Below, one piece after another: positions 13,805 through 32,873 of a stretch of 64,000 nucleotides of DNA. Origin of the DNA: Escherichia phage ECO103 4-12-1; sequence record OR844650; one strand, given 5' to 3'. The position numbers were made by a program, and so were the translations under genes. Numbering within the stretch: position 1 is the stretch's first letter; every line of letters begins with the position of its first letter. Under the pieces are notes generated by a model. That model worked only from the letters and a program-made list of their open reading frames with translations. It did no database searches and had not been told where the DNA came from.

Positions 13805-13858
13805 GATAAAACTCCTTAATTTAGGAGGGAGAACCATTTCCCCCTCTCTATGTAAAAC

Positions 13859-13886
13859 ATTATACTTGATTCTAAGTACTATGCAA
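13859..13886 (-). promoter_or_regulatory. early-type promoter (TTGCAT-16-TATAAT) followed by 5' hairpin
   Basis: minus-strand read; hairpin GGGAGAACCATTTCCCCCTC at ~13824-13845 then RBS. Confidence 0.55.
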
Positions 13887-13893
13887 GTACTTT

Positions 13894-14226
13894 TTACATT
13901 TTAATACCTGGATTCAGATAGCGGTGAGAACCATATTCTGGATCGGTTTCGGTCCAGTACTGTAAATCGATAGTACCTTTCGCGTTAATCTTGTCTACCA
14001 GCTTATTCATCTTAGCGTATACTACGTCAGCATCGATGCGTTTAAAGCCAGTAGCTTTAGTGAAGTAGTAGTGATTTGCTTCACTATCATTAAGGATATA
14101 CCGAGCACCGTTTGCAGTCTGTGCGATAATGATTGAGTATTCTACTTCCCGATCCAGACCGTCGATGAATACAGATGAAACATTGGTACGGATGAAAGCT
14201 TTAACGATAGCGATTGAAGTACTCAT
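13894..14226 (-). CDS. hypothetical protein
   Basis: ORF track; promoter-hairpin-RBS cassette upstream. Confidence 0.6.
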   Translation of the reverse strand: MSTSIAIVKAFIRTNVSSVFIDGLDREVEYSIIIAQTANGARYILNDSEANHYYFTKATGFKRIDADVVYAKMNKLVDKINAKGTIDLQYWTETDPEYGSHRYLNPGIKM

Positions 14227-14375
14227 TTTGAATCTCCTAACTTTGTGGGCCGTCGCACCATTGCCGCCCTACGAGATACATTATTGCAGTACTGATATAC
14301 TTTGTCAATACTTTTTTTATTAATAGTTTTCACCCCACCAGCAGATAGTTACTCACCGTTATTAACTATATATTT

Positions 14376-14460
14376 TAGATACACTCCTGCACCCAGTGGG
14401 CTAGTTTTTGTCTATGCGTATATAATAGCAAAGGGACTGACCGGAGTCAATCCCTTTTTT
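14376..14460 (+). repeat. intergenic repeat element X (copy 1) with intrinsic-terminator-like hairpin
   Basis: 'agatacac..gcaccc..tgggct..ataatagcaaagggactgaccggagtcaatccc' + T7 run; 4 copies in window. Confidence 0.5.
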
Positions 14461-14472
14461 TATTCTTTTTTG

Positions 14473-14673
14473 TTAGATGATTCTCCAATCTTCTACGATC
14501 ATGGTAAGATAACGGACCATCGATTCAAGTGATTCGAATTCCCGATAGTCTGCCGCTCCACCAGCGGTACAAGTACAGCCGATTAAACCATTTTGTAATT
14601 CCTTAATCTGTACATCGATAAGGTTGGCTTTAGCTTCTTTCAGTACTTCAACCAGGGCGATAGCGATAGACAT
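14473..14673 (-). CDS. hypothetical protein
   Basis: ORF track; promoter cassette upstream. Confidence 0.55.
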   Translation of the reverse strand: MSIAIALVEVLKEAKANLIDVQIKELQNGLIGCTCTAGGAADYREFESLESMVRYLTMIVEDWRII

Positions 14674-14728
14674 AATGTTTTACTCCAAACTATTGACGGG
14701 AGAACTATTCCCCCGCTCTATGTAAAAC

Positions 14729-14756
14729 ATTATACATTACTTGTTAGTACTGTCAA
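14729..14756 (-). promoter_or_regulatory. early-type promoter (TTGACA-16-TATAAT) + 5' hairpin
   Basis: minus-strand read; hairpin GGGAGAACTATTCCCCC downstream. Confidence 0.55.
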
Positions 14757-14762
14757 ATAGTT

Positions 14763-15020
14763 TTATGAAATATCTTCGATGTAGTCGGCCCATTTCATTT
14801 TTTCAGTACTGTCAATGGCTACCGGATTATTTGGATCAAACCATTCACCATTACCGCAGTACATACCAACGGCTACGGTTTTATAGCCATCCTGGGCCGT
14901 ACTCCACGACATTGCACGATAGATATGGCCTTTAACTGGTTGCAGTACTGGTAACGTTTTATGGTCTTCTACGTAGGCCATAGCTTGAGGATTTACCCGA
15001 TATTGTGTGAATTGTTCCAT
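14763..15020 (-). CDS. hypothetical protein
   Basis: ORF track; promoter cassette upstream. Confidence 0.55.
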   Translation of the reverse strand: MEQFTQYRVNPQAMAYVEDHKTLPVLQPVKGHIYRAMSWSTAQDGYKTVAVGMYCGNGEWFDPNNPVAIDSTEKMKWADYIEDIS

Positions 15021-15096
15021 GATGTTTCCCCTTGTAGTTAGTAAAGTTATTACATCAGTACTATCAAGCTATGTCAATAGTACTGAAATAAAACTT

Positions 15097-15321
15097 TTAG
15101 ATTAGATTATTGATGCCGTTGATGGTAGACTCGCTTTCTTCTTTCTCCCATTGGCGGTAGTACTTCCATGCTTCATGATATGTGGCGATTAGTTCATCTT
15201 TTTGATCCTGAGTACATGCCAGTACTGAATCACGGTGAGCGGTGTTATAGATAGAATCGAATGATTTCTTCTCTTCTGCCAGGTTAGCTACTTCCCGCAT
15301 CAGTTCATCAAAGTTAGCCAT
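15097..15321 (-). CDS. hypothetical protein
   Basis: ORF track; promoter cassette upstream. Confidence 0.55.
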   Translation of the reverse strand: MANFDELMREVANLAEEKKSFDSIYNTAHRDSVLACTQDQKDELIATYHEAWKYYRQWEKEESESTINGINNLI

Positions 15322-30405: not shown

Positions 30406-30629
30406 TTTGTAACTCTCATTCAGTAGTTGATGTAAGTATTATACGCTTTTAAAAACATTTGTCAAACTATTTTATCAGGGGAGTTTTTCGTGTGCCTTAC
30501 TCCTGGGCTACTTAACGGGGAGTTACTTATTTCGTTCCCCGTCCTGATGTAAAACATTATACGCCTTTAAACATAGTTTGCAAGTACTTTTTAAAAATAG
30601 TTTTCAGTACTGAATATTAAAAAAAAGTA

Positions 30630-30658
30630 TTGACAGCATTATCAAGTACTGGCATAAT
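30630..30658 (+). promoter_or_regulatory. plus-strand sigma70-like promoter (TTGACA-17-CATAAT)
   Basis: near-identical to 28457-28485 promoter; followed by 'aacccaccgggtgc' box. Confidence 0.4.
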
Positions 30659-30832
30659 ATACCCCATGACAACAGCTAACCCACCGGGTGCACAATTGTA
30701 ACTGTAATAAACTACTTTTTCTATAGATACACTCCCGCACCCTATGGGCTACGGCTTATCTGCCAATGAATACATTATGCCAGTACTGACAAAATAAGTC
30801 AATACCGGCAATTGTAAAGATTTGTAAACTGC

Positions 30833-31063
30833 TTATACTGCAATCGCGTCCAGGCTATAATAATAATAAGTGCCGTATTGGTGTACTTTATTACCTTTTA
30901 TTTCAGTACTGAATGAATCCGAACGGTTTGCATATGATGTTAATTTAAAGTACTTTGATTTGCTGATACGTTGCCATACACCGCAGATCCGCTGTAAGTA
31001 AGTAGTTTTATTCGTGGTAGTATCTTTTACGGTTTTAACTTCAGTCATATACATATTAGTCAT
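30833..31063 (-). CDS. hypothetical protein
   Basis: ORF track. Confidence 0.5.
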   Translation of the reverse strand: MTNMYMTEVKTVKDTTTNKTTYLQRICGVWQRISKSKYFKLTSYANRSDSFSTEIKGNKVHQYGTYYYYSLDAIAV

Positions 31064-31150
31064 TTTTATTACTCCAGGTTATAGGCGGGATGTGTTCCCG
31101 CTCTAGATGTAAAACATTATACGCCATTAAACATAGTTTGCAAGTACTTT

Positions 31151-31417
31151 TTATTCAAGTACTGCAATCTTTTTAGTACGGTACACGGTCACGCGGTTGC
31201 CCTTTCGGTCGAGCTTTATTTCTACCACTCGACGCGATACACTATCGGGACTTTTTAAGGCCGCTAACCAGTACTGTAATGATCTGGCTGTACTACGCTT
31301 TACAATGGCCCAACGTTCACCACTTGCCGATCCCGCACCCATATCTTTAAACGTTGCCCCGTCCTGGCGAGCGGCGATCCGAGCTTGTTCACGCGTCGCA
31401 AAATACTTAATATTCAT
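31151..31417 (-). CDS. hypothetical protein (paralog of 18726-19121)
   Basis: ORF track 31151-31453; start moved to MNIKYFATRE. Confidence 0.55.
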   Translation of the reverse strand: MNIKYFATREQARIAARQDGATFKDMGAGSASGERWAIVKRSTARSLQYWLAALKSPDSVSRRVVEIKLDRKGNRVTVYRTKKIAVLE

Positions 31418-31500
31418 GCTGTTGCCCTTATCGTTGGTGTATGAATAAAACACTATTATAAAGTACTATCACCGTGCAATAGTACTTTAAATAAATTCTA

Positions 31501-31740
31501 TTACATTCCAACCATCGCCGCACGGATCGCAGTAGTGCTATATTTGAATCCGTCCGGTGTTTTATCTTGTCCAGTCTGTTCTAAAAATAGCATCATATGA
31601 CGGGCCGCATCATTGCGATTAGTGCTATCGTTAATAAAGTCCTGGGCCAACCGGTACAATGATTCATCGTTATTAATCCAAAGGCTTACATTCCAATGAG
31701 TTTTGTTTTTGTGACCTAAGAACATTTTTGATTTTGCCAT
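31501..31740 (-). CDS. hypothetical protein (paralog of 29462-29701)
   Basis: ORF track 31501-31794; start moved to MAKSKMF. Confidence 0.55.
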   Translation of the reverse strand: MAKSKMFLGHKNKTHWNVSLWINNDESLYRLAQDFINDSTNRNDAARHMMLFLEQTGQDKTPDGFKYSTTAIRAAMVGM

Positions 31741-31823
31741 TTTTTTTAATCCTCTTATATAGTGGGGAACTATTCCCCACCTGATGTAAAACATTATACG
31801 CTTTTAAACTTAGTTTGCAAGTA

Positions 31824-32057
31824 CTATTTTTTCAGTACTGGTAAACCTTTGATCTCACCTGGCTGTACTTCCTCAAAGGCGACCGCCATCATACGGCTAT
31901 CATCTTCCTTACATTCTTCCATCGCATCACAAAAATGATTAATAACGTCCGGTGCAACGTCAACCACATCAAACAAGCCAACCTCAGTGCAACGGCTTAA
32001 AGCGTTTAATAGGTCAGTCAGTGCAACGGATTGAGAAACAGTTAAAATAGTACTCAT
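31824..32057 (-). CDS. hypothetical acidic protein
   Basis: ORF track. Confidence 0.55.
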   Translation of the reverse strand: MSTILTVSQSVALTDLLNALSRCTEVGLFDVVDVAPDVINHFCDAMEECKEDDSRMMAVAFEEVQPGEIKGLPVLKK

Positions 32058-32151
32058 AAAATTAATCTCTTAATTTTAGTGGGGAACTATTCCCCACCTG
32101 ATGTAAAACATTATACGCCATTAAACATAGTTTGCAAGTACTTTATTAAAC

Positions 32152-32514
32152 TTATTTGTAAATTTTGCCACTGTCAGCCCATACCAGGAAACGAGGCATA
32201 TTATCCCATGCATCTTGTTTTAAGTTTAAGCCGTGCAATTCCTCAGTTGTTGCCATCCCTGGTACTGGCTTACTACACACCGCGAAATTTTCGCCCATGT
32301 ACTGATAAACCATCGTCAAATCATTTGAGATCATTACATGGATCATTGAATCAAGCATCAAAGTAGCGGCGTATTGTTCACGCTTAAGCGGCAACATTGC
32401 AATAAGTTCCCGATAAGCTGCAATGTGAATTTTTACAGTTTCAGCCGGAAGACCTTTCATCTCTTCGCGGAAGTTTACCAGGTTAAGCATGATTTTAGTG
32501 ATTTGAGTCGCCAT
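32152..32514 (-). CDS. hypothetical protein
   Basis: ORF track 32152-32571; start moved to MATQITKI. Confidence 0.55.
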   Translation of the reverse strand: MATQITKIMLNLVNFREEMKGLPAETVKIHIAAYRELIAMLPLKREQYAATLMLDSMIHVMISNDLTMVYQYMGENFAVCSKPVPGMATTEELHGLNLKQDAWDNMPRFLVWADSGKIYK

Positions 32515-32873
32515 CGTTTTAATCTCTCTTAATGTGTAGCGGGAAGTGTTCCCGCTCTCGATGTAAAACATTATACGCCTTTAAACATAGTTTGCAAGTA
32601 CTTTCTACATGTACTTTTAAAATAGTTTTCTTTCTATATAGGGGAACTATCATTCAGTACTGCAACCATCCAGGGGAACTATCTTTCTATATAGGAGTAC
32701 TATTATTCAGTACTGAATCAACCAAATCACTACTACACCCCGTAAAACGGCCTCAGACGCATTCTAACGCATTAATACACCTAAGCTATACATTTGCACC
32801 ATTCCAATCATTCCAGGGCTTTACGGGCCGTTTAAACGCGTTAAATTATTTTCAATTATTTTGTTTTTAGGTA

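Follow-up and report, generated by a model that had tools for sequence, protein, structure and literature searches.

Promoter-early stem-loop (PeSL) cassettes are known from the T4-like phages RB49/phi1, T4/PST and KVP40/nt-1, where a sigma70 promoter, a G(n)-loop-C(n) stem-loop and a Shine-Dalgarno (SD) sequence with its ATG flank ORFans, proteins of unassigned function, in hyperplastic regions (PMC2839356; PMC4122927). Recombination between PeSL copies generates insertions and deletions (indels), replacements and mini-circles (PMC2839356; PMC4122927), and the stem-loops of RB49/phi1 cut lacZ read-through in the manner of a strong terminator (PMC2839356). A second system of reference is SPO1's host-takeover module, described in the work cited in PMC6873191 as a set of small early genes in the terminal repeat with strong promoters and ribosome-binding sites (RBSs). 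The present study analyzes a repeated cassette of promoter, hairpin and RBS on the minus strand of Escherichia phage ECO103 4-12-1, within a 64,000-nucleotide stretch of record OR844650 (hereafter the window), and compares it with these systems.

Like PeSLs, the cassette combines a near-consensus sigma70 early promoter and AT-rich upstream DNA (here an A-tract) with a stable G(n)-loop-C(n) stem-loop that includes G·T pairs. It likewise carries an SD sequence and a start codon at its 3' end, lies between small ORFans in a hyperplastic region, and is the place to which indels and replacements between close relatives map, with homology at the junctions. Unlike in PeSLs, the stem-loop lies 3' of the predicted transcription start, in the 5' untranslated region (UTR), whereas in the five PeSL subclasses it lies upstream of the promoter, overlaps it, falls within it or stands just before the start. 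PeSL stem-loops have been shown or assumed to terminate transcription, whereas no U-tract follows those described here. The carriers differ as well (Asteriusvirus, allied jumbo phages and Vequintavirinae rather than Tevenvirinae), BLAST finds no sequence similarity between the two kinds of cassette, and the present array sits in a direct terminal repeat (DTR). Judged by its sequence, the cassette is PeSL-like, with the stem-loop inside the transcribed leader, and does not represent a new principle. Its setting recalls the SPO1 module as cited in PMC6873191: both comprise roughly two to five dozen small early genes in a terminal repeat, with strong host-type promoters and RBSs. The SPO1 genes, however, are organized in operons, and that account mentions no repeated 5'-UTR hairpin cassette; host and phage lineage also differ, and in the present case the early timing and the takeover role are predictions.

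Read on the minus strand between 13.8 and 32.6 kb, each unit consists of an A-tract, AGTACT, a -35 box of the form TTG(C/A)A(A/T/C), a 16-nt spacer, TATAAT, a leader and the hairpin. The initial transcribed stretch after TATAAT reads (G/A)nTTT(A/G)CAT(C/A)(G/A)(A/G), and 3' of the hairpin an A-rich linker with the SD sequence leads to the ATG. Direct reading of the minus strand, together with a regular-expression scan and a symmetric hairpin finder, identified 27 canonical promoter-hairpin-RBS units on this strand (Table 1), while no promoter-associated hairpin was found outside 13.8-32.6 kb in the 64-kb window. An independent repeat search recovered 29 copies of the promoter core and 23 of the hairpin with the -10 segment. 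The highly repeated unit described in the original prediction, made from the letters of the window alone, is thus real, and the four example palindromes quoted there are present on the plus strand at 16222, 17020, 31762 and 32538. The 9-mer GTTTTACAT, with one mismatch allowed, is not enriched by itself (47 found vs 44.6 expected), so the signal resides only in the composite unit. The 27 canonical hairpins are of the G(n)-loop-C(n) type, with stems of 6-9 bp and predicted energies of -9 to -16 kcal/mol. The loop had been called semi-conserved; instead, loops vary in both length and sequence (tag, atgg, atga, cgg, tgg, cac, acaac, acgtc, atatc, gcggt), and the conserved part is the inner stem, GGGGA(A/G)/(T/C)TCCCC.

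Promoters are more numerous than complete cassettes. A consensus scan found ten perfect 12/12 sigma70 promoters and 104 promoter-like sites in the region, vs 63.6 +/- 7.3 in shuffles. A manual tally of all subtypes on the minus strand, which adds the TTGCAT and TTGCAC -35 boxes missed by the 4-of-6 rule of the scan and includes the promoters of a second repeat family described below, gives ~44 sigma70-type promoters. The initial estimate of around 45 copies therefore holds for the promoters but not for the full cassette, which is present in 27 copies plus four variants, three with a leader of ~80 nt (30583, 20350 and 27392) and one with a different stem (14308). By open reading frame (ORF) reading, the block holds ~55 genes: 27 have a canonical cassette, 4 a variant, 8 a promoter without a hairpin and ~4 a hairpin without a promoter, and ~12 are translationally coupled or bare. 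About half of the genes, rather than nearly every one as first proposed, thus carry the cassette. An extended -10 element (TGnTATAAT) was also examined but rejected: in CAGTACTGTATAAT no 1-nt gap separates the TG from the hexamer, and the sites are scored by the scan as lacking the element.

The block lies in a terminal repeat. Megablast of 13838-32610 against 50,697 phage records matched 201 records, mainly Escherichia phages, and the top-ranked matches are the ~350-kb Asteriusvirus jumbo coliphages 121Q, PBECO4, G17, fEgEco12 and vB_Ec-M-J. The closest is vB_Ec-M-J 2128-20660, with 95% identity across 84% of the query, and coverage by close relatives is patchy (26-84%). The vB_Ec-M-J record annotates positions 1-21525 as 'Direct Terminal Repeats'; BLAST mapping places its position 1 at ~34247 of the window and position 21525, the end of the repeat, at ~12960. 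Because the block is 95% identical to this annotated DTR, it is, on homology, essentially the phage's own ~21-kb direct terminal repeat. For comparison, the DTR of fEgEco12 measures 20,993 bp, as confirmed by restriction digests (PMC13070987). The ~55 small genes of the array share the minus strand, running inward from the left genome end (~34250), and their products, with few exceptions, are ORFans. The pre-early genes of T5, which also lie in a terminal repeat, are a similar case. Past the DTR, the genes of 121Q are tightly packed and overlapping, and intergenic cassettes are absent.

Comparison with relatives reveals the cassettes as places where genes come and go. When BLAST blocks were chained between the window and vB_Ec-M-J or 121Q, a junction pattern emerged in which one genome carries an additional 167-492 bp, corresponding to one small gene, and the other a 'negative gap' of 59-103 bp, that is, a single cassette sequence aligning to both sides of the junction. 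Seven indels of one gene plus one cassette show 59-103 bp of overlapping homology at the junction. Units 19636-19804 (103 bp overlap), 16286-16683 (99 bp) and 15405-15669 (67 bp) are missing in 121Q, and unit 23268-23761, also delimited as 23268-23727, is missing in both vB_Ec-M-J and 121Q (59-93 bp); conversely, both relatives have a 217-bp insertion at 25951-26027, in a promoter-only cassette (77 bp). Both also have an acetyltransferase gene inserted at 21428-21444, in the cassette 21383..21465, and the gene 3' of this cassette has the hairpin AGGGGAAacgtcTTCCCCT here and GGGGAGAAtagTTCTCCCC in vB_Ec-M-J/121Q. A 248-bp insertion in 121Q falls at 14255-14323 (variant cassette 14227..14316), and gene 24423-24695 is replaced in vB_Ec-M-J exactly from the hairpin of one cassette (24695) to the next promoter. 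Against these two relatives, 20 of 23 indel or replacement breakpoints lie inside cassettes, which cover 21% of the DTR (binomial p ~2e-11). As with PeSLs, these alignments indicate that the cassettes are sites of gene insertion, deletion and swap. Separately, two paralogous genes 2 kb apart (29460-29790 and 31499-31829, ~79 amino acids each, 76-91% DNA identity) each have a cassette, and the pair is a duplication of a whole gene + cassette module inside the DTR.

The stems covary. Forty-six distinct hairpins were collected from five phages (the window, vB_Ec-M-J, 121Q, Klebsiella fENko-Kae01 and Salmonella Munch), with arms extracted by script, G·T and A·C treated alike, and loops replaced by AAAA before pair counting. 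This procedure replaced a MAFFT alignment of the 27 cassettes, in which the hairpin fell out of register and the RNAalifold consensus was poor. The covariation score of the 46 hairpins is 0.355, compared with 0.178 +/- 0.013 in shuffles (0/500 reach it), and it drops when the partner column is slid by one to three. Cells changed on both sides number 54, vs 24.4 in shuffles (0/500), and 275 of the 276 cells in the six inner (core) pairs are standard pairs. Single positions carry GC, AU, GU, CG and UA; columns 4/23, for example, hold GC in 15 hairpins, AU in 10, GU in 6, CG in 3 and UG in 1. The covariation first noticed in the window is therefore confirmed, its score exceeding all 500 shuffles.

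The pair types further point to the transcribed strand. A double-stranded DNA palindrome would incur G·T and A·C equally, whereas sense RNA tolerates only G·U, which argues for selection on RNA: the six core pairs of the 46 hairpins include 12 G·U and at most one A·C, ambiguous in register, and the stems of the 27 window copies 19 G·U and no A·C. Between orthologous cassettes of the same gene in different phages, 5-6 one-sided transitions were found, all toward G·U, as in AGGGGAAA/TTTCCCCT to TTTCCTCT in 121Q and GGGGAGAA to GGGGGGAA. A compensatory change from C-G to A-U separates GCGGGGGAAtagTTCTCCCGC (15671-15691) from GAGGGGGAAatggTTTCCCCTC in the vB_Ec-M-J orthologue, and in one orthologous pair the loop-closing A-U is lost. 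With ~5-6 independent events all of one kind (one-sided p ~0.02-0.03), this transition pattern is suggestive, not overwhelming, in favoring sense-strand RNA over a DNA palindrome. The selection for structure proposed at the outset is accordingly supported, and on the transcribed strand.

With the transcription start predicted at the sixth nucleotide past TATAAT (the A of GTTTTA), the 5' UTRs would be 42-51 nt long, ending in the SD sequence and ATG. The stem begins 8-15 nt past the -10 hexamer, within the predicted transcript, leaving an unpaired 5' leader of 3-10 nt (mean 7), or ~2 nt less if the start is the eighth nucleotide; the folding probability of the hairpin within the predicted 5' UTR is ~0.99. 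No T-run (the U-tract of the RNA) lies 3' of any of the 27 canonical hairpins, none of the 27 appears in the list of terminator-like sites, and the tails read ACTAAC, AATAAC, TGGTAAT or CCTAAC. Promoter-less copies with T-runs (29442 and 18703) do appear in that list. Since the U-tract is lacking, the canonical hairpins are not terminators. Rfam 15 gave no match at the gathering threshold in the whole window, and only chance-level sub-threshold matches in the DTR (E <= 1). Two further candidates were rejected. An antitermination hairpin of the lambda nut/boxB type does not fit the variable loops (3-5 nt), and neither a boxA-like element nor an Rfam match was found; the variation of the loops in length and sequence excludes a boxB-like or tetraloop motif in general. 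RNase III processing sites do not fit stems of only 6-9 bp.

When a 92-nt cassette was searched by BLAST against the 50,697 phage records, all matches fell in Asteriusvirus, allied jumbo phages and a few Vequintavirinae. In 36 Escherichia jumbo phages, as in Salmonella relatives, each genome has 9-30 copies; RB49, phi1 and T4 were not among the matches. The unit has the form TATAAT-GnTTTGCATA-GGGGGAAacatcTTCCCCC-ACTAATTAAGGAAA in Salmonella Munch and, within the annotated DTR, in Klebsiella fENko-Kae01, and these copies add G·U variants such as GAGGGAA/TTCCTTC. Phages of the Munch/Kae01 type share only ~29% average nucleotide identity (ANI) with Asteriusvirus (PMC13070987). A scan of IMG/VR with the pattern TATAAT...GGGGRRA...TYYCCCC, a loose one that returned mostly single chance matches, yielded as apparent relatives an uncultivated contig with six copies in 12 kb and a 360-kb contig with 2 copies. 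In the Vequintavirinae phage A73 (142 kb), positions 1017-2875 hold a cassette together with an orthologue of window gene 26017-26160, which encodes a 47-residue zinc-ribbon-like protein (MKTCQCG...), and A73 has further, more diverged promoter-hairpin-RBS units, for example GGGGGAAcatTTCCCCC. This shared cassette and gene suggest that gene + cassette modules move between phage families. The Yersinia Eneladusvirus fHe-Yen9-03, used for one promoter only, has at 11090-11150 the arrangement AAAAAGTACTTGCAA-N16-TATAATGTTTTACATAGA, a near-identical promoter and initial transcribed sequence, in which GTTTTACATAGA leads directly to the RBS and the hairpin is missing. Promoter and hairpin are thus modules that can be separated. 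No earlier account of the cassette in Asteriusvirus or RaK2-like phages emerged from literature searches. RpoD-like promoters with UP elements are reported in the CBB paper, whose text, searched for 'stem-loop' but not for 'hairpin', does not contain the former term.

The reading we lean toward, and hold to be somewhat probable, is that the block is an early-gene array whose expression cassettes double as RNA decay-barrier hairpins and as portable homology. Host RNA polymerase would fire the ~44 strong promoters immediately upon entry of the terminal repeat into the cell. Since the block has only about five terminators, transcripts would be nested and would read through into downstream cassettes, so that the stem-loop would stand both near the 5' end of primary transcripts and between cistrons. 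At approximately +6 to +27 of the mRNA, it would act as RNA, forming a stable structural barrier of approximately -11 to -15 kcal/mol that brackets each cistron and may delimit and stabilize the message against exonucleolytic and 5'-end-dependent decay. Because it is repeated in direct orientation between genes, the cassette, a direct repeat of ~60-100 bp, would also give portable homology through which recombination could delete, insert or swap 'gene + cassette' modules. Repetitive extragenic palindromic (REP) elements and the early RNase III sites of T7 are intercistronic hairpins that likewise delimit stable segments and shield upstream mRNA from 3' exonucleases, although REPs are longer and promoter-less, and the T7 RNase III sites need ~20 bp rather than the 6-9 bp seen here.

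Several points weigh against this reading. Almost all non-coding DNA in the block is cassette, so only the overlap at the junctions is cassette-specific, and the breakpoint enrichment cannot separate cassette from intergenic DNA. Much of the covariation may reflect few events, since paralogous hairpins are exchangeable whole by gene conversion, and the stem register was chosen by maximal pairing, which biases the count toward pairing. The minimum free energy of 38-nt segments is -13.0 kcal/mol in sense and -12.1 kcal/mol in antisense (p = 0.14), so the strand argument rests on pair types, the folding energies not differing significantly. Predicted SD accessibility is 0.65 in native leaders, 0.64 with the hairpin shuffled and 0.67 with it deleted, differences that are not significant, and an RBS-opening 'insulator' role was dropped as the main mechanism for this reason. 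The hairpin is dispensable for promoter function, as the hairpin-less promoter of fHe-Yen9-03 indicates, and the searched literature holds no transcript data for this phage group. Finally, 3-10 predicted unpaired nucleotides fit classical 5'-terminal protection poorly, a point that is not decisive because the starts themselves are predicted. In the 1992 work of Emory, Bouvet and Belasco on ompA, protection was reportedly lost beyond ~2-4 unpaired 5' nucleotides.

This last point bears most directly on a rival in which the hairpin is a classical 5'-terminal stabilizer, its sole role being to block decay by RppH/RNase E, while the repeats are simply duplicated regulatory DNA. Like the 5' stem-loops of ompA and papA, the element is a stable hairpin near the mRNA 5' end and upstream of the RBS; its sense-strand RNA structure is under selection, it lies near the predicted 5' end, and it has a high formation probability. 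The stem-loops of ompA/papA, however, act with the 5' end paired or nearly so, and the predicted leader here exceeds the tolerance reported for this class. RNase E prefers an accessible 5' monophosphate and discriminates against a base-paired 5' end (review PMC3997798), a point in favor of this rival. Yet the same type of hairpin occurs promoter-less between genes (29442, 18703; also A73), and the stabilizer leaves the breakpoint pattern without explanation. We regard this alternative as unlikely, and the initial proposal of a 5'-terminal stem that blocks 5'-end-dependent decay is unsupported in the form in which it was stated.

The near-invariance of the inner stem, GGGGA(A/G)/(T/C)TCCCC, while the outer stem covaries, raises a different idea, namely that the hairpin is a handle on ~30 early mRNAs for a trans-acting RNA-binding protein or nuclease of phage or host origin, a switch turning the terminal-repeat regulon off (or on) in the manner of T4 RegB/RegA acting on early messages. 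The G-arm always comes first, the 5' arm of many copies contains GGAG, and the motif is kept across genera and in a different phage subfamily. Such a protein would nevertheless face loops of highly variable length and sequence, the proteins of the block are ORFans among which no RNA-binding candidate emerged, and recent common descent can explain the conserved inner stem; this possibility is doubtful. Equally doubtful is a combined version, in which the hairpin serves as an address tag through which a dedicated phage factor, or a captured host one, would jointly time the translation or destruction of the ~30 messages of a terminal-repeat regulon, and the module is also actively exchanged, carrying genes between Asteriusvirus, Munch/Kae01-like phages and Vequintavirinae.

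The original interpretation of PeSLs, that the stem-loop is a terminator or attenuator stopping transcription from the upstream gene, would draw on the reduction of lacZ read-through by the RB49/phi1 stem-loops (PMC2839356), on the promoter-less copies with T-runs in the block and on the annotation of G17, a genome consulted for annotation only, which labels several such hairpins as terminators. It is quite improbable for the canonical copies, given that all 27 lack a following T-run and that a hairpin 3' of its own promoter's start would end its own transcripts before the gene served is reached. A DNA operator at +5 to +30 for a dimeric repressor or activator, which had been offered as the alternative to an RNA role, would account for an inverted repeat at a fixed distance from a promoter in many copies, but half-sites vary with compensation so that complementarity is kept, the imperfect pairs are G·T, and only on the sense strand (equivalent to A·C on the other), and the arm spacing varies from 3 to 5 nt, all of which make it very improbable. 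Scarcely credible is a functionless passenger in a cassette spread by duplication and recombination: the copies are clearly paralogous and recombining, the Yersinia relative has the promoter without the hairpin and SD accessibility is unaffected in silico, but pairing is kept through both one-sided changes to G·U and two-sided changes, and the element persists across genera at only ~29% ANI.

Table 1. Direct terminal repeat, canonical cassettes, variants and incomplete copies (window coordinates; ATG gives the position of the start codon)
Feature	Coordinates	Strand	Promoter	Hairpin or leader	Hairpin position	ATG	Remarks
DTR of Asteriusvirus (121Q/PBECO4-like) jumbo phage	12960..34250	-					homology to vB_Ec-M-J DTR
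Cassette	32515..32605	-	TTGCAA-16-TATAAT	AGCGGGAAcacTTCCCGCT	32538-32556	32514	RBS
Cassette	32058..32145	-		GGTGGGGAAtagTTCCCCACT	32078-32098	32057	
Cassette	31741..31828	-		GGTGGGGAAtagTTCCCCACT	31761-31781	31740	
Cassette	31064..31151	-		GCGGGAacacaTCCCGC	31085-31101	31063	vB_Ec-M-J orthologue GCGGGAAcacTTCCCGC
Cassette	29702..29789	-		GGCGGGGAGtggTTCCCCGCT	29721-29741	29701	
Cassette	28814..28899	-		AGGGGGGAaatggTTCTCCCT	28832-28852	28813	G·U pairs; upstream edge (28900) is an indel breakpoint vs vB_Ec-M-J
Cassette	28349..28431	-		(TA)GGGGGAgcggTTCCCC(TG)	28368-28387	28348	
Cassette	28028..28114	-	TTGATA-16-TATAAT	AGGGGGAGcggTTCCCCCT	28047-28065	28027	
Cassette	26475..26565	-	TTGCAC-16-TATAAT	GAGGGGGAAacggTTCTCCTTC	26496-26517	26474	two internal G·U; breakpoints vs 121Q at 26520 and 26488
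Cassette	26161..26246	-		GGGGAGAAatggTTCTCCCT	26179-26198	26160	product starts MKTCQCG
Cassette	24660..24747	-		GAGGGGAAActtTTTCCCCTT	24681-24701	24659	
Cassette	24336..24421	-		GGGGAGAAatgaTTCTCCCC	24354-24373	24335	breakpoint 24423; 121Q orthologue GGGGGGAAtggTTCTCCCC, A-to-G change giving G·U
Cassette	23731..23818	-		GGGGAAacaacTTCCCC	23752-23768	23730	
Cassette	23181..23267	-	TTGCAT-16-TATAAT	AGGGGAAAcggTTTCCCCT	23200-23218	23180	121Q orthologue TTTCCTCT, C-to-T change giving G·U
Cassette	22743..22831	-	TTGACA-16-TATAAT	GGGGAGAAtagTTCTCCCC	22765-22783	22742	
Cassette	21383..21465	-	TTGAAA-16-TATACT	AGGGGAAacgtcTTCCCCT	21400-21418	21382	
Cassette	21107..21193	-	-35 (C)TGGACA	GGGGAGAAatgaTTCTCCCC	21125-21144	21106	
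Cassette	20808..20894	-	TTGCAC-16-TATAAT	GAGGGGAAtagTTCCCCTC	20828-20846	20807	
Cassette	19811..19902	-	TTGACA-16-TATAAT	GGGGAAatggTTCCCC	19836-19851	19810	
Cassette	19541..19632	-		GAGGGGAAtggTTCCCCTC	19564-19582	19540	
Cassette	17000..17087	-	TTGCAT-16-TATAAT	AGGGGGAAatggTTCTCCCT	17019-17038	16999	internal G·U
Cassette	16695..16782	-		GGGGAGAAtagTTCTCCCC	16716-16734	16694	
Cassette	16200..16288	-		GGGGAGAAtagTTCTCCCC	16222-16240	16199	
Cassette	15653..15739	-		GCGGGGGAAtagTTCTCCCGC	15671-15691	15652	
Cassette	15322..15404	-		GGGGGAGatatcCTCCCCC	15340-15358	15321	
Cassette	14674..14764	-		GCGGGGGAAtagTTCTCCCGT	14696-14716	14673	
Cassette	13805..13894	-		GAGGGGGAAatggTTCTCCCTC	13825-13846	13804	identical copy in Klebsiella fENko-Kae01 and Salmonella Munch DTRs
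Variant	30406..30591	-	TTGCAA 30583; second promoter TTGACA 30465	~80-nt leader (ACATCAGGACGGGGAAC...CTCCCCTGATAAAATAG)		30405	
Variant, two-promoter unit	20174..20358	-	20350 and 20234	~80-nt leader		20173	also in A73
Variant	27242..27400	-	TTGACA-16-TAGAAT 27392	diverged long leader		27241	
Variant	14227..14316	-	TTGACA-17-AATAAT 14308	different G/C stem-loop GGGCGGCAATGGTGCGACGGCCC		14226	
Promoter-less hairpin, cassette type	29423..29442	-		GGCGGGGAatggTTCCCGCC			followed by TTTATT; terminator-like
Promoter-less hairpin, cassette type	18685..18703	-		GGCGGGAtcagtTCCCGCC			followed by TTTTTT; terminator-like
Promoter-only cassette	25928..26005	-	TTGACA-17-CATAAT	no hairpin			3-copy subfamily with 22510 and 15077
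Two promoter-only cassettes	22168..22518	-	TTGACA 22510 and 22239	no hairpin			short genes
Two promoter-only cassettes	18080..18420	-	TTGACA 18412 and 18136	no hairpin			separate subfamily

The ~80-nt leader of the variant units lies between tandem promoters and occupies 30468-30556 and 20237-20322 on the minus strand, with a diverged copy at 27283-27365, and recurs in A73 (1106-1190) and in a Munch-like IMG/VR contig (4951-5040). Its consensus is ACATCAGGACGGGGAAC..AAGTAAC.CCCCGTTAAGTAG.CCAGGAGTAAG.CA.ACGAAAAACTCCCCTGATAAAATAG, with no variation in the blocks TAAGTAG, AGTAAG and ACGAAnAACT among Asteriusvirus, the Munch-like contig and the Vequintavirinae phage A73. This conservation is what a structured RNA or regulatory leader might show, and the leader may be one, with weak covariation support among the five sequences.

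A second repeat family of 8-10 copies is interspersed in the same block, with its motif at 30748, 23888, 20419, 17147 and 14400 on the minus strand and at 28514, 30680 and 33146 on the plus strand. Each has its own promoter, TTGACn-17-(T/C)AT(T/A)AT, followed after ~25 nt by CCCAYNGGGTGC and (A/G)N(A/G)AGTGTATCTAT; because they contain no ORF, these repeats may be small RNA genes. Four copies show the classical PeSL layout, their -35 box being enclosed in a 12-bp stem, AAAGGGATTGACtccgGTCAGTCCCTTT; the pair at 30680(+) and 30748(-) is convergent. Further members occur in fENko-Kae01 and an IMG/VR contig, and Rfam gave no match to the family.

The palindrome AGTACT is far more abundant than expected, with 268 occurrences in 64 kb vs ~21 (13-fold), densest at 12-40 kb, and CAGTACTG occurs 64 times in the window. 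In the cassettes, AGTACT directly precedes the -35 box in 17 of 27 and the -10 box in 10 of 27. Over the window it is distributed over coding and non-coding DNA alike. Enrichment reaches 16-21-fold in the DTRs of vB_Ec-M-J, 121Q, Klebsiella fENko-Kae01 and Salmonella Munch. A literature search on AGTACT enrichment found nothing relevant; the palindrome might serve as a site of DNA binding, modification or packaging.

Close to the terminus, ~1 kb from the inferred left genome end, the segment 33345-33496 contains 8-bp-periodic repeats (CGTCTAGC / CATCCAGC / CGTTTAGC), and GATAGTTCCCC motifs are repeated at 32640-33310. Both may be linked to the terminus, packaging or replication. Among the early ORFans, the minus-strand gene at 21464-21721 encodes a DksA/TraR C4 zinc-finger protein (Pfam E = 1e-11), and the product of 17221-17862 on the same strand bears a weak resemblance to kinases that does not reach the Pfam cut-off; its counterparts in relatives carry the annotation protein kinase. 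These DksA/TraR-type and kinase-like products are plausible candidates for host-transcription or host-takeover effectors.

The comparison of the window with its relatives provides clear evidence of cassette-mediated gene shuffling in the terminal repeats of jumbo phages. If the proposed reading is correct, it would extend the PeSL idea, of portable regulatory cassettes through which small accessory genes are both expressed and reshuffled, from T4-like to jumbo and rV5-like phages and would point to a general route for maintaining a rapidly evolving stock of host-takeover genes in large virulent phages. The array also offers ~30 natural replicates, with compensatory variants, for the effects of near-5' hairpins on the fate of bacterial mRNA, and the cassette, a compact (~90 bp), very strong and self-contained E. 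coli expression unit, may find use in synthetic biology. Because the array lies in the terminal repeat, each of its genes is present twice per genome and is probably among the first to enter the cell, a position that would be relevant to host takeover by these phages.

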